From positions 1 to 40,000 of the forward strand of contig JAPLSM010000037.1 in assembly GCA_026398635.1 (NCBI GenBank): a stretch of 40,000 nucleotides of DNA. The letters run 5' to 3'. A program made the position numbers and the translations under genes. Positions 1 through 12,293 of the stretch are shown piece after piece (position 1 is the stretch's first letter; the number at the start of each line of letters is the position of its first letter). Under the pieces are notes generated by a model. The model had not been told where the DNA came from and did not search any database. It worked only from the letters and a program-made list of their open reading frames with translations. Source of the DNA: Spirochaetota bacterium (lineage in GTDB: Bacteria > Spirochaetota > Spirochaetia > SZUA-6 > Fen-1364).

Positions 1-94
1 CATCTGCTACCGATCCATCATCAACGCCACCGCGCGGAACCTGAAGATCGTCGACTCCGCCGACGTCTTCCTCGAGGACCCGGCCGAAGCATGA
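1..94 (+). CDS. 3' end of an unidentified protein-coding gene (5' part lies outside the window)
   Basis: Reading codons from nt 2 gives ...ICYRSIINATARNLKIVDSADVFLEDPAEA, then TGA at 92-94. 27 of 30 codons end in G/C, matching the high-GC coding style of most of the window. 30 aa is too short for a family call. Confidence 0.5.
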   Translation, partial: ICYRSIINATARNLKIVDSADVFLEDPAEA

Positions 95-258: not shown

Positions 259-1293
259 TTAGTCGCTCTTTTTCTTTTTTCCATCCTCATTGGAGGTTTC
301 CTGGGGCCTATGCAATAATCGCAAGGCGGCTGCGCCTACAAAAAAGGGGAACCAGATCGTCATGGTCCGGAAGACCAGGGTGATCAAAATCGCCTCTGTA
401 ATTGGAACCTTCAGTGTGTTCAATGCCGCAGGCATGATCCCATCTACAATCCCTACACCCGAGGGGGTGGGGGAGGCATAAAAGAACAGGTAACTGATGC
501 TGAAGCCCCCCACCAGAGTGCCGATGGTAAATGGTGTATTCAGTGCCAGGAACGTAGATGCCAGCACGCACAGGAGCAGCGCTTTGTTATTCAGGGTGAA
601 CAGGAACGGCCAGATCAGATTCTTGTGACTCCCCCGGATCGTTGCGATTCCCTCAGCCACTTCGTGGGAAAAATGGTATGCATTTTCGATCTTTAATACA
701 TCCCGATGAAGGAACGGTTTCAGGATACGGTTGACCAGCCGTGCTAACCAGGCCAGCACATTCCCCAGCTTCTCCGGAGCCTTGTAGCCCAGAACCAGCA
801 TGGCGCCATCTGCCAGTGCGATCACCAGCAGGAAACTGGCCGCGACCAACTCTCCTGCATTCAGATTGTTCCGCCGGATGAGTACAATAAACCCGAGCAG
901 GAGAATGCAAAAAAGGGCAGCATATTCATATACGAGATATAACACCCCGACCACCATCACACGCGCGGTGGAGATTTTGCGCCTCCTGGCAGCATCCAAA
1001 AAGACCGCGATACCACCCACGCCCGCGCTGGGTGCGATTAGATTGATAAAATTCGCCGCCGTCGTCAACAGGAATAACTGCCAGCGCTTCTCTTTCAACC
1101 CGACCAGGCGGTACAATGCGCCGAATGTTGAGGCATTATTGAACAAACAGATAATTTCGAACAGAAAAGCAACCAGAAGAAAGATGGGATTGCTTTTTTT
1201 AAGAACTTCCAGAATTTGTTCTAGTTCAGAAAAGCTGAATATGATAAAAGCTGCTGCCAGCAGTACGACAATGATGATGATAATTTTTTTCAT
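259..1293 (-). CDS. Polytopic membrane protein, UPF0104 / MprF-flippase-like (lysylphosphatidylglycerol synthase TM region) family
   Basis: 344-aa ORF with multiple hydrophobic helices (MKKIIIIIVVLLAAAFIIF..., ...APSAGVGGIAVFLDAARRRK..., ...PTPSGVGIVDGIMPAAL...) and a Lys-rich C-terminal tail. Family assigned from recollection of the domain, not a search. About 50% GC, unlike most of the window. Confidence 0.75.
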   Translation of the reverse strand: MKKIIIIIVVLLAAAFIIFSFSELEQILEVLKKSNPIFLLVAFLFEIICLFNNASTFGALYRLVGLKEKRWQLFLLTTAANFINLIAPSAGVGGIAVFLDAARRRKISTARVMVVGVLYLVYEYAALFCILLLGFIVLIRRNNLNAGELVAASFLLVIALADGAMLVLGYKAPEKLGNVLAWLARLVNRILKPFLHRDVLKIENAYHFSHEVAEGIATIRGSHKNLIWPFLFTLNNKALLLCVLASTFLALNTPFTIGTLVGGFSISYLFFYASPTPSGVGIVDGIMPAALNTLKVPITEAILITLVFRTMTIWFPFFVGAAALRLLHRPQETSNEDGKKKKSD

Positions 1294-1367
1294 TGTGGGA
1301 TTATACAGAAGATTTCGACGGTGATGTGCATCAAAAATACGCCCTATCCCCTTGTCCTCGCATCACA

Positions 1368-2099
1368 TTACTTGCCTTCTTTCGCCAGCCGGATTGCATC
1401 GGGTATGGCGTTTGCAATGAAAAAATACAGCAGCATCAATGCAAAGGCTGCAACGATTATATCATACACGCTGAAGGCGAGTTGCCCAAATACTCCAACT
1501 GTCAGCGACATGCTGTGTACCCCTCCAAAATACATGCCGGTATTTAATAGAATGGCGATCACGCGGAACTCGGTCGGACCCATCTTGTTGGATGATATTT
1601 TGAACTCCCCCATGACACACGTGCGCACGTACGCAAGCACGGAGAGCAGCAGGTAGCCGATCAAGGCCAGACAAGCGATGCTGAAGCTGACGTACGGTGT
1701 CAAGCCCAGTCCCAGGAAGATCATCAGCTCGTTGAAGGCATCTGTCGTGTGGTCGATAAAAAAACCAAAGATCGGGCGTTCGATATGCCGGTGACGCGCG
1801 ATGGTACCGTCCAGACTGTCTCCGAACCAGTTGATCACGAACCCCAGCGATGCAAACCACAAGAAGTTCCTGTTGATCATGCTCAAGGCATAACTGATCA
1901 TGATCACCAAAGCACCCAATATACCGATGACAGTGCAGACATCCGGGCTTACCCACGTCGGCAGGTTGGTTGTAAGCCATTTCAGCGCCGGCCTCTCCAA
2001 CGGGCCGAGCAGGCTGTCATTCACCCTTTTGTGCTTTGCAAAATCGTTCACGGGTTTTCTCCTTGGATGTTCAGCTTGGAACCCTGTCACCCTATTCAA
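1368..2099 (-). CDS. CDP-alcohol phosphatidyltransferase family protein
   Basis: 243-aa membrane ORF carrying the family signature DG-x2-AR...G-x3-D-x3-D as DSLDGTIARHRHIERPIFGFFIDHTTD. Its start abuts the stop of the upstream acyltransferase gene (2099/2100). Confidence 0.85.
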   Translation of the reverse strand: MNRVTGFQAEHPRRKPVNDFAKHKRVNDSLLGPLERPALKWLTTNLPTWVSPDVCTVIGILGALVIMISYALSMINRNFLWFASLGFVINWFGDSLDGTIARHRHIERPIFGFFIDHTTDAFNELMIFLGLGLTPYVSFSIACLALIGYLLLSVLAYVRTCVMGEFKISSNKMGPTEFRVIAILLNTGMYFGGVHSMSLTVGVFGQLAFSVYDIIVAAFALMLLYFFIANAIPDAIRLAKEGK

Positions 2100-3026
2100 T
2101 CATTGCATCCCGGTTTTGTTTGGGACCAGGTCCAATGCCTGCGGCCAGACTGGCAAAGAGATTGACCATTGTTGCGGAGCCTGTCGGATGAATCTCTCTG
2201 CTATGCCTAACACCTTTTCGGCGTTTTGGATCTCTTCTGTTGCCCGATCTCTATGGGGATCCATCTCGATCAAGTCGGATGTCAGCATATGATACTTACC
2301 ATCCGGTTGCAGGTTCGTAACGATGATCATCACCGGGACCTTGGCTTTGACCGCCAGGGAAATATGATGCATGGGGAGCGCAGCGGGCCGGCCAAAAAAA
2401 CGTGGATATACCTTCGGTGCCGGGATGGGACGGTCGATGCCGGTCATCACGACCCCTCCCTGCTGGAGATGCCTGAGCGCCTGGCGTAATGCAGCGAAGG
2501 AAGCCGGAACCAGGTTCATCCCGATTTTTTTCCGTACCTCATATTCCAGGCGCCGCCCACCCCGCGGATTGGGGATGGTAAGCACCAGGGGCCTAAACCC
2601 CTGCTGGATGAACCACTGCAGGGCAAGATCAAAATTGCTCAGGTGCAGCCCGACGAGCATCAGACCGCGCTTGTCAAATTCAGGCCGCCGGATCAATGCC
2701 TGGGAGGTAGGATCCAGAACGATCAGGTGTCCGGTTGCCTTGGGGTTTTGCATGTAGTGATACAGATCGAAGATGGAGCGGGTTGAATTACGAAGTGTCT
2801 CAAGCACAGCCTGGTCCAAAGCCCCCTTTTTCAGGGTTTCTCCACGGACGACCCACTGGTTGGCGCGCACCGCCTGGATCATTTTGGAATCCTGCCGATT
2901 GGCGATCCGTGCCGCTACAAGGTCGGTGAAGGCGTGCCCAAGGCGTAGCGGGAGTCCCCTCCCCAGGGCGGAGACCAGGCTGAGTACGAATCGACTGTCA
3001 TTCAAACGTTGGAGGTTAATGGTCAT
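2100..3026 (-). CDS. Lysophospholipid / lipid A-type acyltransferase (LpxL/HtrB, LABLAT-like family)
   Basis: 308-aa ORF with an H-x4-D acyltransferase motif (LVGLHLSNFDL) and overall resemblance to lauroyl/myristoyl acyltransferases. First gene of a three-gene minus-strand operon. Confidence 0.75.
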   Translation of the reverse strand: MTINLQRLNDSRFVLSLVSALGRGLPLRLGHAFTDLVAARIANRQDSKMIQAVRANQWVVRGETLKKGALDQAVLETLRNSTRSIFDLYHYMQNPKATGHLIVLDPTSQALIRRPEFDKRGLMLVGLHLSNFDLALQWFIQQGFRPLVLTIPNPRGGRRLEYEVRKKIGMNLVPASFAALRQALRHLQQGGVVMTGIDRPIPAPKVYPRFFGRPAALPMHHISLAVKAKVPVMIIVTNLQPDGKYHMLTSDLIEMDPHRDRATEEIQNAEKVLGIAERFIRQAPQQWSISLPVWPQALDLVPNKTGMQ

Positions 3027-3074
3027 GGGATGAACGTCCCTATTCGGGTAGCTTTTCTTCTCGCGGACACATTG

Positions 3075-3103
3075 ATTATATTTAAGTATTAATCTATGCG
3101 CAA
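3075..3103 (-). promoter_or_regulatory. Putative sigma70-type promoter of the lipid cassette
   Basis: On the minus strand: TTGCGC (3103-3098), 17-nt spacer, TATAAT (3080-3075), about 50 nt upstream of the ATG at 3026. It lies in an AT-rich stretch just after the T-tract that follows 5S rRNA. Confidence 0.45.
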
Positions 3104-3145
3104 CTGTGTGCGCACTGCGTTATCAACCGAAGGAAAATAGAAAAA

Positions 3146-3260
3146 GCCTGGCAACGACCTGCTCTCCCACCCACGAGGGGCAGTACCATCGGCGCGGCAG
3201 GGCTTAACTTCCGCGTTCGGGATGGGAACGGGTGGGACCCCTGCGCCATGGTCACCAGGC
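3146..3260 (-). rRNA. rrf: 5S ribosomal RNA, apparently intact (115 nt)
   Basis: The reverse complement reads GCCTGGTGACCATGGCGCAGGGGTCCCACCCGTTCCCATCCCGAACGCGGAAGTTAAGCCCTGCCGCGCCGATGGTACTGCCCCTCGTGGGTGGGAGAGCAGGTCGTTGCCAGGC. It has the canonical 5S blocks (CCGAAC..GAAGTTAAGC, GATGGTACTG, GGGAGAG.AGGTCG..GCCAGGC), a paired terminal helix GCCTGG/CCAGGC, and a following TTTTTCTATTTTCC. Confidence 0.93.
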
Positions 3261-3467
3261 ATTCAAATACACATCAGAGAAGGGAAGAAGAAGCTCGCGT
3301 CTGCCGCACATCGCTGTCGCGACCGACTCTGGCGATATCTCCCGCTCTCGCAACTTGCTGTCGCGAGTTGGGTTTGCAGCTGGCCGCTCTCGCACATCGC
3401 TTCTCGATGTGCTGTCGCGGCGGCCCACTGCTGCAGTCAGCATTCTTTGAAGGATAACGAAAAATAT
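3261..3467 (-). repeat. 23S-5S type spacer containing short direct repeats and hairpins
   Basis: In RNA sense GCGACAGC occurs three times. TGCGAGAGCGG occurs twice, each time downstream of a GCGACAGCA. A 7-bp hairpin CACATCG-agaag-CGATGTG is also present. Confidence 0.5.
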
Positions 3468-3563
3468 GGTCAAGCCTCACGGTGGATTAGTACTGGTCGG
3501 CTACACGCGTTGCCGCGCTTACACCTCCAGCCTATCAACCTGGTTTTCTCCCAGGTACCTTTC
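3468..3563 (-). rRNA. Orphan 3'-terminal fragment of 23S rRNA (about 96 nt, 4.5S-like); the rest of 23S is absent
   Basis: The reverse complement is GAAAGGTACCTGGGAGAAAACCAGGTTGATAGGCTGGAGGTGTAAGCGCGGCAACGCGTGTAGCCGACCAGTACTAATCCACCGTGAGGCTTGACC. It aligns with the last ~100 nt of bacterial 23S (E. coli, recalled from memory: ...GTTGATAGGCCGGGTGTGTAAGCGCAGCGATGCGTTGAGCTAACCGGTACTAATGAACCGTGAGGCTTAACCTT). Immediately upstream, in transcript sense, is the 3' end of tRNA-Arg rather than 23S sequence. Confidence 0.8.
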
Positions 3564-3637
3564 CGCGTCCAGCCGGACTCGAACCGGCGGCCCACAGCTT
3601 AGAAGGCTGTTGCTCTATCCAGCTGAGCTATGGACGC
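3564..3637 (-). tRNA. tRNA-Arg (anticodon UCU), 74 nt, CCA not encoded
   Basis: Reverse complement: GCGTCCA TA GCTC AGCTGGATA GAGC A ACAGC CTTCTAA GCTGT GGGCC GCCGG TTCGAGT CCGGC TGGACGC G. This is a full cloverleaf with a 7-bp acceptor stem and a GTTCGAGT T-loop; the anticodon loop CT-TCT-AA gives TCT. Confidence 0.9.
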
Positions 3638-3641
3638 ACGG

Positions 3642-3714
3642 TCGGGATGAGAGGATTCGAACCTCCGCTCTCCTGCTCCCAAAGCAGGCGCCTTAGCCGC
3701 TAGGCTACATCCCG
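3642..3714 (-). tRNA. tRNA-Pro (anticodon UGG), 73 nt
   Basis: Reverse complement: CGGGATG TA GCCT AGCGGCTA AGGC G CCTGC TTTGGGA GCAGG AGAGC GGAGG TTCGAAT CCTCT CATCCCG A. The acceptor CGGGATG/CATCCCG pairs and the anticodon loop TT-TGG-GA gives TGG. It lies 4 nt upstream of tRNA-Arg. Confidence 0.9.
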
Positions 3715-3859
3715 AAGGGCGGCAGCCATCTGCGCAGCAGATGGCATGAGCCCCGAATTCCCCATCCGCAACATGCGGAGCACATTGTGGAAGGGTGGCC
3801 ACTCCGTAGCCTATGCGCGCGGAGCGAGCGGGTCAAGGTTGCGAGGCTGTTGCGGGTGG

Positions 3860-4342
3860 CTACTCCCCGGTCACGGCCTTGAGGAACTTCGCACGGTCGG
3901 CGCCTTCCTTCAGGATCACGAGCAGGGTGTCGTCGCCGCCCACCGTGCCGAGCGCCTCGGAGACCTTCAGCTGGTCGATGGCGTAGGCGATACCGGGCGC
4001 GTACCCCATCTTCGTCTTCACCACGGCGAGGTTGCCCGAGAACTGGATGGCGATGATCTCCCGGCGCAGGTCGTCCAGGATGAATGGGTCCTGGGTGGAC
4101 TCTTTCGGCGCATCGACGGTGTAGACGTACTCGCCGCTCCTGTCCGGCACGCGGGCGACGCTGAGGAACTTGAGGTCCCGGGACAGGGTAGCCTGGGTCA
4201 CCGTGACCCCCTCCTTCCCGAGCCGCTTCAGCAGTGCCTCCTGGCTGTGGATCTTCTCGCTGTGCAGGATCTGCTGGATCAGGCGACGCCTGGATTCCTG
4301 GCTCTTCAGGGTGGTGCCCTCCTTCGTGCCTTCGCTGAGCAT
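3860..4342 (-). CDS. argR: Arginine repressor ArgR
   Basis: 160-aa ORF. The N-terminal winged-helix region (RRRLIQQILHSEKIHSQEALLKRLGKEGVTVTQATLSRDLKFL) and C-terminal oligomerisation/arginine-binding region (GTVGGDDTLLVILKEG) are typical of ArgR/AhrC. Confidence 0.9.
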   Translation of the reverse strand: MLSEGTKEGTTLKSQESRRRLIQQILHSEKIHSQEALLKRLGKEGVTVTQATLSRDLKFLSVARVPDRSGEYVYTVDAPKESTQDPFILDDLRREIIAIQFSGNLAVVKTKMGYAPGIAYAIDQLKVSEALGTVGGDDTLLVILKEGADRAKFLKAVTGE

Positions 4343-7406: not shown

Positions 7407-7955
7407 ATGAAGAAGCTCATCATGGCACTCGTAATGAGTGCATTCCTGTTTACCGGATTCGCCGCGAGCGCGCAGACCCAGGCGCTCGTGCTGCCCGTCG
7501 GCAAGGAGAACCCGACGGTCGATGGAGTCTCGGTCGCTTCCGAGTACCCCGTGGGCACCGAGATCAATGGCATGAAGCTGTGGCTCGCGCGGACCGCTGA
7601 CGCCGTGTACGCGGCCTTCTCCGCGCCGACCACGGGTTGGGTGGCCATGGGCTTCGGGTCACCGAGGATGGACGGCGCGCTCATGTTCATCGGGTTCGTC
7701 AGCTCCGACGGCAAGGCCCAGCTGAAGATCCAGAAGGGCGCTGGACACTCCCACGGCGACGTGCAATCCGACGCGTTGATCCAGTTCGCCATGAAGGAGG
7801 AGGGCGGCGTGACCACCCTCGAGGTCGCAGTGAAGTCGGCGAGCGTCATCGGTAAGGCTGCTGCGGAACTGCCCATGATCATGGCATACGGAGGTGCGGA
7901 TAACTTCGCCAGCCTCCACCGGGCCCATGGATCAGTTCCAGTCAAGTTGCAGTAG
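7407..7955 (+). CDS. Secreted DOMON / CBM9-like domain protein
   Basis: Signal peptide MKKLIMALVMSAFLFTGFAASAQT and Shine-Dalgarno AAGGAGG at about 7390-7396. The P-x-VDG...EY opening and beta-rich pattern resemble DOMON-superfamily ligand/heme-binding domains. Function unknown. Confidence 0.55.
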   Translation: MKKLIMALVMSAFLFTGFAASAQTQALVLPVGKENPTVDGVSVASEYPVGTEINGMKLWLARTADAVYAAFSAPTTGWVAMGFGSPRMDGALMFIGFVSSDGKAQLKIQKGAGHSHGDVQSDALIQFAMKEEGGVTTLEVAVKSASVIGKAAAELPMIMAYGGADNFASLHRAHGSVPVKLQ

Positions 7956-7977
7956 TCGACCCTCAGAGTCCGGTCTA

Positions 7978-8017
7978 CGGGCGGCGGCTTGCGTGCAGGC
8001 CACCGCCCGTCTCCATT
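7978..8017 (+). terminator. Possible hairpin terminator after the DOMON-like gene
   Basis: CGGGCGGCGG (7978-7987) pairs with CCACCGCCCG (8000-8009) with one mismatch and is followed by TCTCCATT. The U-tract is weak. Confidence 0.3.
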
Positions 8018-8078
8018 GAAGCCATGCGGCGGTTCGTGCCCTTCACCCAGCAGGTGAACCCGGCAAGGAAGTGACGCG

Positions 8079-8390
8079 ATGGGATTGATCCATATTGCGC
8101 CTGGCGGCGAAACGTTTCCCACGAATCCGGCCCGTTCGATCCTGAATACCCTGCTGGCGGGCGGTTTCCCAATCGACACCGTGTGCGGTGGCAGGGCGCA
8201 GTGCGGACGGTGCCTGATCAGGGTCCGCTCCGGGCAGCGGTTCCTGAGCCCCCGCACATCCGCCGAGGAGGCGCGGCTGGCAGCTCTCGGCGTCGACCAC
8301 TCCGAGCCTGAATCTCGCCTCGCCTGCCAGTCCCACGCAAGGGGCGATGTGGAAATCGAAGTCGTCAACCTCCGCGGACGGAAAGCTTGA
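8079..8390 (+). CDS. 2Fe-2S ferredoxin-like protein
   Basis: 103-aa ORF with the Cys cluster VCGGRAQCGRC...LACQS and a beta-grasp-like N-terminus. AAGGAAG lies upstream of the ATG. Confidence 0.7.
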   Translation: MGLIHIAPGGETFPTNPARSILNTLLAGGFPIDTVCGGRAQCGRCLIRVRSGQRFLSPRTSAEEARLAALGVDHSEPESRLACQSHARGDVEIEVVNLRGRKA

Positions 8391-8422
8391 ACCGTACCCG
8401 GGTAGTGGTATACTGGGGTTGG

Positions 8423-10270
8423 ATGAAGCGTTTCGCGGCCTTCAGCTTGCTCCTCTTTCTCGCGCTCGCCCTGCTCTCCTGCGGGGGTGACGGGCTCACG
8501 CTTTTCCCGCGCTCCGCGGCGAGCGATTTGTCCATCGTCGGGCCCGAGGATGGGTCGGTGCTCACCAGCGCCCAGCCGCTGGCGCTCCAGATCGGGACCG
8601 CGGATCCCGCCGGGCATCCGGACCTCGAGGTGCAGGTGACCCTGCTCTCGGCGACCGGCGACAGCGTGTGGGAGCAGCGGTTCACCAGCCCCGCCCTGAA
8701 CGAGGACCTCGGCCTGCAGCTTCCGGACCTTCCCGTCGGGCAGTACCGGATCGAGGTCGTCGTCTTCCAGGACGGAACGCAGGTCGAGCGGCACACCGCC
8801 ACGATCTTTGCAGTCCGCGAACGGCCTCGTATCGCGGGCATCGCCTCGTTCCCGCCGCTCATCACCGCCTCCTCGCCAGTGCTGCTCAGCGCCGAGATCA
8901 CTGCCGACGCCGGCTCCGATCCTTGGCTGCGCTGGACGTGGCGCGGGAAGACCATCGCACAGGGCAGCTCGTCATCCGGCACGGCGGCTGTTCTGTGGAA
9001 AGCGCCGGCCGACGACGGGGTCTACACGGTCACCCTCGAGCTCTTCCCCGTAGCGCCGCCCGCGGGCCCCGGCTTTTCCTTCCGCTCGTCGATCGTCATG
9101 TCAACCGACATCTACGTCTCCGCCGCTGGCGCGACCGCACGGGACGAGCTGGGGCCCGCCTCGTCCTACCTCAGCCTCTTCCACCTGCAGGCCGACCTCG
9201 CGGATGCCGCCGCAGCGGCGAGGAACCTGGAGCGCGCCGCGATCCCGATCGGTTCACCGCGCATCGTGCCCGTCGGCGACGGCTTCGGGTACCACCTCGA
9301 GGGAGGCGCCGGCTTCCGCGTGCCGTGGCCGGTGCTGCCCGTCGAGGACGGGAATCTCGCCCCCTTCACGCTGAGCGCGGGCATCCGGCCCGAGCAGCTG
9401 ACCGGTGCCGACCGCATCGTCACGGCCACGGCGGGAACCCTCGCCTTCACGCTGGGACTCGGCACGGACGGCTCCCCCGAGCTGGCCATCGCCGCACCGA
9501 ACTCGCCCCGGCTCTCGATCCCTTCGGGCGCACCGAGCCTCGCACCGGGACGACGCTATCTCGTGTCGGTGTCGGTCATGCCCCGGCAGGACGGCATCTC
9601 GGTGCGGTGGTTCGTCGACGGCCGGCAGGTTTCCGAAACCACCGCCAGCCTGCTGCTCCCCCAGACGGGCGCGGAGGGATCGGCGGTCGTCGGCGGAGAG
9701 TCCGGGTTCGCGGCCGTCATCGACGAGCTCGGCGTGTATTACCGGGACGATGCCGGACGGCCGGCGACCGACCCGACGCTCTTCCGCGCAGCCATGCGGA
9801 AGCTGCACGGCGACCGCCTGCTCCTCGCGGACGGCTTCGACGGCATGTTCCTCCCAACAGGGTTCATCGGGTCGGGAAAGACAGCGCTGGGCTCCGGCAA
9901 CCTCACGCTGTCGCCCGAGGCGGCAATCGAGCTGCCGCCGATCCGGTTCCCGGCCGAAGGCTTCTCCCTCGAACTCGCGCTGGGCGGCGACTCGGAGCGT
10001 ACGGCGGACGTGTGGCTCTCCTGGGCGGGGACCGACGCGCCGTTCGTCACCGAGCGGCTGACCGCCGAGTCCGGCACGCTGCGCCTGCAGTTTTCACTTG
10101 AACTCGAAAGCGTGACCGCCCGGACCGCCGAGGGCGTGCGCAGCTGGTCCATCCCGAAAGCGCCGGCCGAGAAGGCGGGCATCGTCCTGCGCGCCGCCTG
10201 TCCCCGGGGGGCCCGCTCCCCGCTCGTGATCGCCGAGATCGTGGCGCTGACGACGGGCGAAAAGGATTAG
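8423..10270 (+). CDS. Large lipoprotein of unknown function (possible Ig-like plus LamG/concanavalin-like jelly-roll domains)
   Basis: Lipoprotein signal MKRFAAFSLLLFLALALLSC-GGDG (lipobox LLSC). Start moved to the ATG at 8423 within ORF 8387..10270. GC3-rich throughout; no catalytic motifs recognised. Confidence 0.65.
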   Translation: MKRFAAFSLLLFLALALLSCGGDGLTLFPRSAASDLSIVGPEDGSVLTSAQPLALQIGTADPAGHPDLEVQVTLLSATGDSVWEQRFTSPALNEDLGLQLPDLPVGQYRIEVVVFQDGTQVERHTATIFAVRERPRIAGIASFPPLITASSPVLLSAEITADAGSDPWLRWTWRGKTIAQGSSSSGTAAVLWKAPADDGVYTVTLELFPVAPPAGPGFSFRSSIVMSTDIYVSAAGATARDELGPASSYLSLFHLQADLADAAAAARNLERAAIPIGSPRIVPVGDGFGYHLEGGAGFRVPWPVLPVEDGNLAPFTLSAGIRPEQLTGADRIVTATAGTLAFTLGLGTDGSPELAIAAPNSPRLSIPSGAPSLAPGRRYLVSVSVMPRQDGISVRWFVDGRQVSETTASLLLPQTGAEGSAVVGGESGFAAVIDELGVYYRDDAGRPATDPTLFRAAMRKLHGDRLLLADGFDGMFLPTGFIGSGKTALGSGNLTLSPEAAIELPPIRFPAEGFSLELALGGDSERTADVWLSWAGTDAPFVTERLTAESGTLRLQFSLELESVTARTAEGVRSWSIPKAPAEKAGIVLRAACPRGARSPLVIAEIVALTTGEKD

Positions 10271-10291: not shown

Positions 10292-11167
10292 CTATCTGAT
10301 CATCCGCTTCAGCAGCGGGTCCCGTTTCCGCCAATCGTGATCGACCTTCACCCGCAGGTCCAGGACGACCTCGTAGGGGAAGATGACCCGCAGCTCCTGC
10401 TCGGCCTCCCGGACGATCGCGTGGATCTTCTCGCCCGCGCGGCCGACAACGATCCCCTACTGCGATTCGCGCTCCACCAGGATGAACCCGCGCACATCCA
10501 GCCGGTCCCCGTCCTCGCTCATCTCCAGATCCTCGAGCCTCACGTAGATTGCGTGGGGCAGCTCCGCGCGCGTGTGCGCAATCGCCTTCTCCCGGATGAT
10601 CTCGGCGATCCTGAACGGAGGATCCTGGTCGGTGTAGAACTCTTCAGGGTAGAGCTGGTCTCCTTCCGGGGACATAGCCAGAAGGGCCGAGGCGAGACCC
10701 TCCACGCCTTCACCCTCGAGCGCCGACACCTCGTGTACGGGCACTCCAGGAAGCGCTTCAGCGACAGATGAACGTATTTCCTTCCAAAAAGGACCCTTCC
10801 GATCGCTTTTGTTGATCGCGATGATGCACGGTCTTGCCGAAGAACGAAGCTTTTCTAGTAAAGCGCGCTCCTCATCACCGAACGCACGCGTCCCATCGAC
10901 GAGGTAGAGGACGATGTCCGAATCTCTCAGCGTCACGGAGACCAGATCGGTGAGGTAGCGGTTGAACTTCTTCTCCGAAAGGTGGAAGCCGGGCGTGTCC
11001 ATGAACACGAGCTGGCCAACGGGCCGGTTGAGGATGCCCCGAACCCGGTTGCGGGTGGTCTGGGGCACGGGCGAGACGATCGAGACCTTGGCGCCGCACA
11101 GCCGGTTCATCAGCGTCGACTTACCGGCCGATGGCCTGCCGACGATCCCGACGAGCGCGCACTTCAC
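10292..11167 (-). pseudogene. era: GTPase Era, full-length homology but interrupted by one in-frame TAG (codon 237, nt 10457-10459)
   Basis: The GTG start at 11167 overlaps the mtnP stop (GTGA). G1 GRPSAGKST, G2-region QTT, G3 DTPG and G4 NKSD are present. Reading continues ...FILVERESQ-TAG-GIVVGRAGEKIHAIVREAEQELRVIFPYEVVLDLRVKVDHDWRKRDPLLKRMIR-TAG. The stop sits where the KH-domain motif ExxSQKGI(V/I)IG has Lys. Confidence 0.8.
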
Positions 11168-12033
11168 GCCGGACCCGCCCAGTACCTGCCGTAGAGGAGG
11201 TTCAGCCGCTGCTTCGTCTCCGGGGGTATGAGAGAGGGATCGGTGACGATCGCCAAGGCAGCGGCGTGCCGGCATGTGCAGTCCGCTCGGTCCGCGAGCG
11301 CCCCGACGAGGCCGGGCAGCGCGCGCTTGATGTCCTGGACGTTCTGCCGCATGGTCGCGAGGACCATCTCCAGGGTGACGCCCCCCCCCTCCCCGCGCCA
11401 GCAGTCCCAATCCGTCACCATCGCCACGGTTGCGTAGCACATCTCGGCCTCCCGGGCGAGCTTCGCCTCGGGGAGGGCCGTCATACCGATGAGGTGCGCA
11501 CCCCAGGATCGGTGGAGCAGGGACTCCGCCCGGCTGGAGAACGCGGGGCCTTCCATGCACACGAGGGTCGCCCGATCGCGGAAGGCGTGGCCGGCCCGGG
11601 AGAGTTCGACGGCGATCCGTTCGCGCATGCCGGGGCAAAACGGCTCGGCGAAGCTCACGTGGCCGACCACACCGTCGCCGAAGAAGGAGCTCGGCCGCCC
11701 GGTGGTGCGGTCGATGAGCTGGTCGGGCAGCACGAACGACCCAGGAGCGCACTCCTCGCTGAGCGATCCCACGGCGCTGACCGATATGACCTGCACGACC
11801 CCGAGGGACTTCAGCGCCCAGATGTTGGCGCGCGACGGCACCTCCGAGGGCAGGAACCGGTGTCCCCGCCCGTGCCGGGGAAGGAAAGCGACTCTCTCGC
11901 CGCCGATCTCCGCGATGCTGATGCGGTCGGACGGCCTGCCGAACGGCGTTGCGATTTCTACGTGATCGAGGAACTTCACACCGTCGATCTCATACAGACC
12001 GCTGCCCCCGATGACCGCGATGCGCGTCGTCAT
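11164..12033 (-). CDS. mtnP: S-methyl-5'-thioadenosine phosphorylase
   Basis: MTTRIAVIGGSGLY..., FLPRHGRGH, ...VSAVGSL..., ...MEGPAFSSRAES..., ...IGMTALPEAKLAREAEMCYATVAMVTDWD are hallmark PNP/MTAP blocks. Start placed at the internal Met of ORF 11164..12084. Confidence 0.88.
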   Translation of the reverse strand: MTTRIAVIGGSGLYEIDGVKFLDHVEIATPFGRPSDRISIAEIGGERVAFLPRHGRGHRFLPSEVPSRANIWALKSLGVVQVISVSAVGSLSEECAPGSFVLPDQLIDRTTGRPSSFFGDGVVGHVSFAEPFCPGMRERIAVELSRAGHAFRDRATLVCMEGPAFSSRAESLLHRSWGAHLIGMTALPEAKLAREAEMCYATVAMVTDWDCWRGEGGGVTLEMVLATMRQNVQDIKRALPGLVGALADRADCTCRHAAALAIVTDPSLIPPETKQRLNLLYGRYWAGPA

Positions 12034-12040
12034 GCCCGCG

Positions 12041-12069
12041 ATTGTCCACGAATCTGCACACTCGGGCAA
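12041..12069 (-). promoter_or_regulatory. Putative promoter of the mtnP-era operon, leaderless geometry
   Basis: Minus strand: TTGCCC (12069-12064), 17 nt, GACAAT (12046-12041), 7 nt, then ATG (12033). Confidence 0.4.
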
Positions 12070-12164
12070 GCGGCGATCACGCATCGCCGGCGGTGGACTA
12101 TACAGGCGATTCCCTCATCTGCGATTTCCGGACCTGAATTCCATGCACGTCGACACGATTCGCA

Positions 12165-12192
12165 TTGACAACGGTCGGCCCTCATGTATAAT
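12165..12192 (+). promoter_or_regulatory. Near-consensus sigma70 promoter
   Basis: TTGACA (12165-12170), 16-nt spacer, TATAAT (12187-12192), with TG immediately 5' of the -10 element. Confidence 0.6.
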
Positions 12193-12198
12193 GACCCA

Positions 12199-12293
12199 CG
12201 CATGGGAGCCTTCCGCCCCACAACCTCCAGTACCAAATGGAGGACGGAAGTTTGACGGGTGGCCGGGGCAGCGATGCCCCGGCCTTATTTTTT
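12199..12293 (+). ncRNA. Candidate small RNA of about 95 nt (alternatively a leaderless 17-codon micro-ORF), family unknown
   Basis: Bounded by the promoter above and the terminator below. It has nested perfect stems CTTCCG (12210-15)/CGGAAG (12245-50) and CCTCCA (12224-29)/TGGAGG (12238-43). ATG at 12202 opens MGAFRPTTSSTKWRTEV-TGA. I could not match it to SRP, 6S, tmRNA or any riboswitch I know. Confidence 0.45.
12261..12293 (+). terminator. Rho-independent terminator
   Basis: GGCCGGGGC (12261-69), loop AGCGAT, GCCCCGGCC (12276-84), then TTATTTTTT (12285-93). Confidence 0.8.

Follow-up and report, generated by a model that had tools for sequence, protein, structure and literature searches.

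Layout of the locus

The window analysed here is a stretch of 40,000 nucleotides (nt) from contig JAPLSM010000037.1 of a Spirochaetota metagenome-assembled genome (MAG), and it contains an isolated 3′ tail of 23S ribosomal RNA (rRNA) that abuts the end of a transfer RNA (tRNA) gene. On the minus strand, argR is followed by tRNA-Pro(UGG), 4 nt, tRNA-Arg(UCU), 0-2 nt, a 23S tail of ~97 nt, a 207-nt spacer, a 5S rRNA gene and a T-run, after which comes a low-GC cassette of three lipid genes. The succession from tRNA-Pro to the T-tract had been proposed in an earlier reading of the bare sequence (hereafter the sequence-only reading) and was confirmed with ARAGORN, Rfam and the large-subunit (LSU) rRNA model. 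We argue below that the 23S piece is probably a young relic of an operon tail. The features are as follows (L132 and L133 are related loci described below).

3860..4342, minus strand: argR, 160 amino acids (Pfam Arg_repressor and Arg_repressor_C)
3642..3714, minus strand: tRNA-Pro(UGG) (ARAGORN and Rfam, 70.8 bits)
3564..3637, minus strand: tRNA-Arg(UCU) (ARAGORN and Rfam, 70.5 bits)
3467..3563, minus strand: 23S rRNA 3′ tail, helices H99-H101 and the 3′ strand of H1 (LSU model, E. coli and L132 alignments)
3260..3466, minus strand: 23S-5S spacer (internal transcribed spacer 2, ITS2), ~207 nt (L132 alignment, repeat families D4 and D9)
3146..3259, minus strand: 5S rRNA gene, full length (Rfam 91.3 bits, model positions 1-120 of 120)
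3125..3145, minus strand: T-rich run after 5S helix I (TTTTTCTATTTTCC), probable operon terminator (read from the sequence; conserved in L133)

Positions 2886-2973 of the 2987-position LSU model match 3560..3481 (42.8 bits, E 7e-11), the score falling below the LSU gathering score of 50 only owing to the shortness of the piece. Aligned with E. coli rrlH, the fragment corresponds to approximately nt 2808-2904, i.e. H99, H100, H101 and the 3′ strand of H1, and its assignment by the sequence-only reading to the extreme 3′ end of 23S, around H99-H101, is thus upheld. The fragment starts at the H98/H99 border, homology to the 23S of L132 opening directly after the H98 hairpin of the latter. The 2.8 kb of 23S that normally precede this part are absent; tRNA-Arg, tRNA-Pro and argR lie upstream instead, and a search with rRNA models found no other LSU or small-subunit sequence in the 40-kb window. 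Plasmid-borne rrn operons match the locus by BLAST in two pieces, the 23S end and the 5S. On folding, the expected H99-H101 helices form. Across 81 distinct bacterial 23S tails, 33 columns reach a conservation of 95% or more, and the fragment conforms to every one; the pattern with which the tails had been gathered fixed 20 of these columns, leaving 13 as the independent test. No decay was seen in either the conserved columns or the helices.

A near-exact pattern of the fragment had no match in 185,579 species genomes, a collection that does not include the source MAG, and the tail occurs in none of the representatives. Scans of metagenomes with a 42-nt 5S pattern and a 35-nt pattern across the 23S end and ITS2 gave no matches for either, nor did scans of viral contigs. 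A more general pattern, a tRNA T-arm followed by H101, had at least 119 matches; those listed were ordinary 23S genes carrying GTTCRANNC by chance and overlapping no tRNA, and were discarded as uninformative on the frequency of such fusions.

The tRNA-Pro gene has the same sequence in relatives L001 and L002 and is separated from tRNA-Arg by CCGT. The tRNA-Arg gene does not encode CCA, and in alignment its 5′ two-thirds match the relatives exactly. Two sub-threshold Rfam matches, Plastid-ycf2 5′UTR (33 bits, 3563-3637, plus strand) and YrlA (25 bits, 3581-3694, minus strand), were rejected as tRNA look-alikes; both were also seen over the tRNA-Arg of L003 and L004. A simple terminator scan found no terminator-like site between tRNA-Arg and 5S; nor did it flag the T-rich run at 3125..3145. 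Approximately 94 nt upstream of tRNA-Pro, the motifs TTGACC and TAGGCT are spaced by 17 nt (3808-3836, minus strand), as they are in L001. This site, not called by a consensus promoter scan, is a candidate for the promoter from which the tRNA pair and, by read-through, the 5S would be transcribed.

Conservation ends within tRNA-Arg

Relatives of the locus were found through argR homologues in L002, L003 and L004 (90%, 79% and 77% identical, respectively) and on L001, a 964-nt JGI contig. The argR gene is the last of a syntenic block, the order argR-DUF2231-PolX-Nth being common to L002-L004, and these three loci keep the upstream synteny (DUF2231, PolX, endonuclease III and more) together with the tRNA-Pro-tRNA-Arg pair. 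Downstream of tRNA-Arg each of the three has a different set of genes. Across 852 nt that span argR and both tRNAs, L001 differs from the window by 15 mismatches (98.2% identity); beyond tRNA-Arg it continues for 112 nt without any match in the window. None of L001, L002, L003 or L004 has 23S or 5S sequence after tRNA-Arg. In the four-way alignment similarity ends at the final base of this gene, and the ancestral downstream sequence of L001-L004 was sought elsewhere in the window and not found.

In L002, PolX (7645-9481) is called only as a 238-amino-acid PHP-domain piece followed by ~1.1 kb without a called gene, as against 591 amino acids in the window; loss of the gene's function (a pseudogene) or a frameshift from long-read sequencing may account for the difference.

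The change of ancestry appears to fall inside the tRNA gene and not at its end. Three of the 15 mismatches to L001 lie within the last 34 nt of tRNA-Arg (3564..3597; Fisher p = 0.019). At these positions (3590, 3585 and 3575) the window has C, G and C where all of L001-L004 have T, T and A, and two of the three window-specific changes form a compensatory pair in the T-stem. The interval 3564..3597 is therefore probably a recombination tract at which homology to the ancestral locus stops, and the pattern, as judged from the alignment, is one of recombination or integration at a tRNA and not of a long-standing operon. Moreover, the first gene downstream of the same tRNA-Arg(UCU) in L004, starting ~100 nt after it, encodes a tyrosine integrase (10871-12266; Phage_integrase, E 1.7e-16), which by its position marks tRNA-Arg(UCU) as an island integration site or recombination hot spot in the lineage. 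No att repeat was found at the L004 locus within its 10 kb, and the window contains no second copy of the tRNA-Arg 3′ end at up to 3 mismatches.

The closest rRNA locus found is a complete 23S-5S operon

The closest rRNA locus found was L132, a 3,521-nt European Nucleotide Archive (ENA) contig. It was reached by a protein-style search with a spurious antisense open reading frame across the 5S, ITS2 and 23S tail, which matched a spurious frame of L132. L132 carries a complete 23S gene (bacterial LSU model 1-2925, 2725 bits), with H98 and a contiguous tail, followed by a 5S (99 bits). The fragment is identical to the end of this 23S at 98 of 106 positions (92%), and the window 5S to the operon-borne 5S at 113 of 119 (95%). 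Since L132 is complete and contiguous, the nearest available relative of the rRNA tail is an ordinary, unsplit 23S-5S operon, with which the order 23S end, ITS2, 5S and terminator in the window is colinear.

Homology to L132 starts at AAGGTACC (3561), 2-3 nt past the tRNA discriminator, extends ~25 nt into the spacer and is lost from there to the 5S. These first ~25 nt of the spacer resemble the 3′ strand of the L132 23S processing stem. In L132 (3262-3290 and 205-240) the leader and trailer are complementary over more than 25 nt and form a long perfect stem around the 23S (GAAGAGCGA..GAAAATATGGTCAAGC with GCTTGACCATATTTTCGTTCGCTCTTC), by its pairing a textbook RNase III processing stem, of which the window retains only the trailer strand. 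The 23S leader of L132 comprises 267 nt without tRNA or 16S, and 23S-5S may therefore be unlinked from 16S in this lineage.

At 3292-3401 (minus strand) of the window, a hairpin-forming unit of ~25 nt (CGCGACAGC...GCGAGAGCGG; repeat families D4 and D9) occurs three times in ITS2; L133 has it once and L132 not at all. These counts indicate that the spacer grew from ~120 to 207 nt by local duplication.

A low-GC lipid cassette is linked to the 5S

Downstream of the T-run lies the cassette.

259..3119, minus strand: low-GC lipid cassette with leader (Pfam, nucleotide identities, GC)
2100-3026, minus strand: acyltransferase (Pfam)
1368-2099, minus strand: CDP-alcohol phosphatidyltransferase (Pfam)
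259-1293, minus strand: LPG_synthase_TM-type protein (Pfam)

The sequence-only reading had spoken of an adjacent low-GC cassette, and the contrast is real: the cassette is 52% GC and its flanks 68-69% (68% on the tRNA side), most of the window being 65-75% GC. Window positions 1-93 are the end of a plus-strand gene with ~90% GC at third codon positions; no identification was obtained for the left flank (1-258). High-GC DNA thus borders the low-GC segment at either end, which is more in keeping with an acquired insert than with a single end-to-end chimera.

The trio is a conserved module with different neighbours on each metagenome contig. Its nucleotide identity to the window is 94% in L005, 93% in L133, 85% in L134 and 83% in L006-L010, and across contigs (the window, L005, L006-L011, L133 and L134) its GC content is slightly to strongly below that of its surroundings. 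In L006-L007 the cassette lies near an inositol-1-phosphate synthase gene, a position suggestive of an inositol-phospholipid pathway moving between genomes.

No 5S was found upstream of the cassette in L006-L010, L011, L134 or the P0130 contig. In L133 the linkage recurs: from 5S through cassette, it is 93% identical to window 3267-1375. Upstream of its 5S, L133 has 34 nt matching the middle of the window spacer, then unrelated sequence, with neither a 23S piece nor a tRNA. The L133 5S scores 75 bits; three additional base pairs are broken in it, and its conserved GGAAGUUAAGC region is altered by substitutions. Judged against L132, it carries 9 lineage-specific changes, as against 1 in the window 5S, in which G46 is window-specific; one A.C mismatch is common to both. 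The occurrence of the linkage without 23S piece or tRNA, together with the unequal number of changes, indicates that the cassette-linked 5S is a true orphan that is decaying in the L133 lineage, the window representing a younger state of the same locus.

These comparisons bear on whether the arrangement arose in place, from an ancestral tRNA-Pro-tRNA-Arg-23S-5S operon at this site that lost nt 1-2807 of its 23S. Such a deletion would account for the colinearity of tRNA, 23S tail, ITS2, 5S and terminator with an operon, and for the lack of a terminator from tRNA to 5S. However, rRNA sequence follows tRNA-Arg in 0 of 4 relatives, the 98%-identical strain included, the L132 23S leader has no tRNA in its 267 nt, and the 5S is tied to a compositionally foreign cassette with which it is also linked elsewhere. 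Deletion in place is accordingly an improbable origin.

Host and assembly of the contig

A protein entered as 'MAG: ArgR family transcriptional regulator [Spirochaetes bacterium]' has the same sequence (100% identity) as the argR product. This ArgR (MCX7028796.1) and the acyltransferase (MCX7028795.1) have consecutive NCBI accessions on one 44,193-nt contig of a bin with locus-tag prefix NTU62, and the join between tRNA, rRNA and cassette is therefore present in the deposited contig. An acyltransferase 99.4% identical to that of the window (P0245; MCX6035787.1, NTV38_12555) is encoded on a 2,997-nt contig of a Chloroflexi MAG with a neighbouring locus-tag prefix. A copy so similar suggests that transfer was very recent, that a contig was mis-binned or that one population was assembled twice.

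The join could have been made during assembly if an ordinary, complete 23S-ITS2-5S operon lies upstream of the cassette and a repeat overhang of ~98 nt was misjoined to a contig end at tRNA-Arg. The source is a short-read-type metagenome bin, and both sides of the junction, the end of a strain-conserved tRNA and the end of conserved 23S, are natural branch points of an assembly graph. The tail at 3563..3466 would, from its coordinates, be 98 nt, that is k-1 for k=99. Moreover, cassette contigs elsewhere are nearly all ~3 kb, as if flanked by repeats, and the 99.4%-identical copy was binned to another phylum. Against this, a blunt join is not something that De Bruijn assemblers produce unless reads span it, and the near-identical strain has a different 3′ third of tRNA-Arg, which places the change of origin inside the tRNA and not at its end. 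High-GC DNA is found again beyond the cassette, and a chimera of two organisms would thus take two false joins. L133, finally, has an orphan 5S beside the cassette as real biology in a related lineage. An assembly artefact is therefore unlikely, though it is the least improbable of the rival explanations considered here.

Comparison with known systems

The 4.5S rRNA of chloroplasts is the 3′ tail of 23S and starts after the loss of H98 (PMC5694952). The window fragment resembles it (land-plant plastid rrn) in comprising the same part of 23S, H99-H101, in being of about the same length and in lying just upstream of 5S (PMC5694952). The sequence-only reading, which had the two begin at about the same point, was essentially right (the H98/H99 border; PMC5694952). 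Like a 4.5S rRNA, then, the fragment is the 3′-terminal ~100 nt of 23S after H98, but it does not lie between a 23S body and 5S in an rrn operon and is not conserved in its lineage (L001-L004, L133). In plastids, by contrast, the 23S body is immediately upstream in the same operon, across a ~115-nt spacer, it lacks the domain, and the arrangement is conserved in the lineage; the window has no 23S body, its arrangement is strain-specific, and the 23S of the nearest relative is complete.

The proposal of the sequence-only reading that this is a 4.5S-like split rRNA would require that 3′ processing of tRNA-Arg sets the 5′ end of a free H99-H101 RNA, which is assembled in trans into the 50S subunit with a main 23S lacking the domain. 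On this proposal one would expect the arrangement to be conserved and the locus to be stable. The proposal draws on the start at the H98/H99 border, as in chloroplast 4.5S (PMC5694952), on the abutment of the fragment with the tRNA end, on the intact conserved positions and helices, on the retained start of the processing-stem trailer and on the apparently constrained 5S that comes next. The comparative data run the other way and leave the proposal unsupported. Neither the 98%-identical strain nor any of the three syntenic relatives has the arrangement; the closest 23S found runs complete and unbroken through H98-H101; the 5S-cassette locus of L133 is wholly without the piece; the 40-kb window contains no 23S body; and a strain-variable insert of foreign composition is not where one would expect an essential rRNA domain. 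A working split rRNA is thus very improbable. We likewise give only a slight chance to the tRNA-Pro/tRNA-Arg transcript yielding a free H99-H101 RNA that is used in trans by the ribosome, or otherwise, e.g. by binding the large-subunit proteins that contact this domain.

Orphan 5S genes and operon remnants offer a second comparison. Francisella has an 'orphan 5S rRNA fragment' beside three full operons (PMC3479022), and unlinked rRNA genes in general are a further example from bacterial genomes (bioRxiv 10.1101/705046). Similarly, the window 5S is full-length without an adjacent full 23S, its flanks are colinear with a normal operon of which it appears to be left over, and its presence varies among relatives, with L133 as the decaying stage. 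It differs in that the relic keeps a precise, intact H99-H101 piece and the full ITS2, and is fused to a tRNA 3′ end, probably riding on the tRNA transcript. In the literature on remnants of partial 23S plus 5S, only the Francisella fragment and cases at contig ends were found; a Helicobacter pylori paper considered as a parallel was set aside, as it concerned engineered truncations.

The third comparison is with tyrosine-integrase islands integrated at tRNA genes. The insert in the window likewise begins in the 3′ part of a tRNA, which has been replaced by a slightly different copy, its composition is foreign, and in a relative (L004) an integrase gene lies at this tRNA. Unlike such islands, it is small and opens with rRNA sequence instead of an att arm, and its genes are three lipid enzymes with no integrase among them. 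Moreover, no direct repeat of the tRNA 3′ end is found at the far boundary within the window, the available 3.5 kb being without flanking repeat.

A probable young relic of an operon tail

Taken together, these data favour, somewhat more strongly than even, the reading of the 23S piece as what is left of an rRNA-operon tail, a young relic and a passenger carried with the cassette into a recombination hot spot at tRNA-Arg, and not as a working split rRNA. The sequence-only reading had offered an operon remnant brought in with the low-GC cassette as an alternative, and this is what L001-L004, L132, L133 and the GC content best support. The case rests on the strain-specific presence of the piece, the breakpoint inside the tRNA, the relatedness to a normal operon, the independent linkage of 5S and cassette, and the foreign composition. 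The fragment is read as a passenger because it is absent from the 98%-identical strain and the syntenic relatives, because the closest 23S is complete and because L133 lacks the piece.

The history that we infer begins with a normal 23S-5S operon once upstream of the cassette, from which the linkage of 5S and cassette would derive, and this linkage would be older than the tRNA junction. A segment of ~3.3 kb (the last ~97 nt of 23S, ITS2, 5S, terminator and lipid cassette) would then have been placed directly after tRNA-Arg(UCU), recently, by horizontal transfer or intragenomic recombination, with one crossover falling within the 3′ third of tRNA-Arg. That gene appears, in this lineage, both to mark a break in synteny and to be targeted by islands that carry an integrase. 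Since no terminator was found between tRNA-Arg and 5S, read-through from the tRNA promoter into the 5S is probable. Processing of the tRNA 3′ end would cut at the 5′ end of the fragment, an extra 5S could be matured from the tRNA transcript, and the ~97-nt 23S tail would come free as a by-product, with no 23S 5′ end to pair with. The direction and mechanism of the event, and the processing of the transcript, are in this sense inferred.

Several observations weigh against this reading. The 99.4%-identical acyltransferase in a Chloroflexi bin, apparently of the same project, makes both the host and the donor of the segment uncertain. Neither an integrase nor an att repeat was found in the 3.5-kb insert region of the window. 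The junction is oddly neat: it follows the tRNA discriminator by 0-2 nt, and on the 23S side it coincides exactly with the H98/H99 border, neither of which a random breakpoint predicts; selection keeping the tRNA whole may have contributed, as may the ~98-nt length that equals k-1 in a k=99 assembly graph. The reading accounts neither for the donor nor for how the 3′ part of tRNA-Arg came to abut H99. The host's own 23S is presumed complete on the basis of a relative, L132. Finally, the intact state of the fragment and of the window 5S fits a young relic, but fits function equally.

Significance

A functional fragment would matter broadly, because bacteria are not known to have a 4.5S-like rRNA: a free H99-H101 RNA would be a bacterial, tRNA-punctuated analogue of the chloroplast molecule. 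Only in that improbable case would the locus be of broad importance. If the 23S piece is a relic of an operon tail, the finding is mainly a point of annotation and quality control, in that a 23S tail and 5S beside a tRNA in a MAG should be interpreted as an operon relic that lies on mobile or rearranged DNA, or else as a problem of assembly, and not as evidence that rRNA is fragmented. The locus would then be seen at three stages: as a complete operon (L132), as a fresh relic with intact tail and 5S (the window) and as a decaying orphan 5S (L133). There would be modest evolutionary interest in this, as a route by which an orphan 5S may gain a tRNA promoter.

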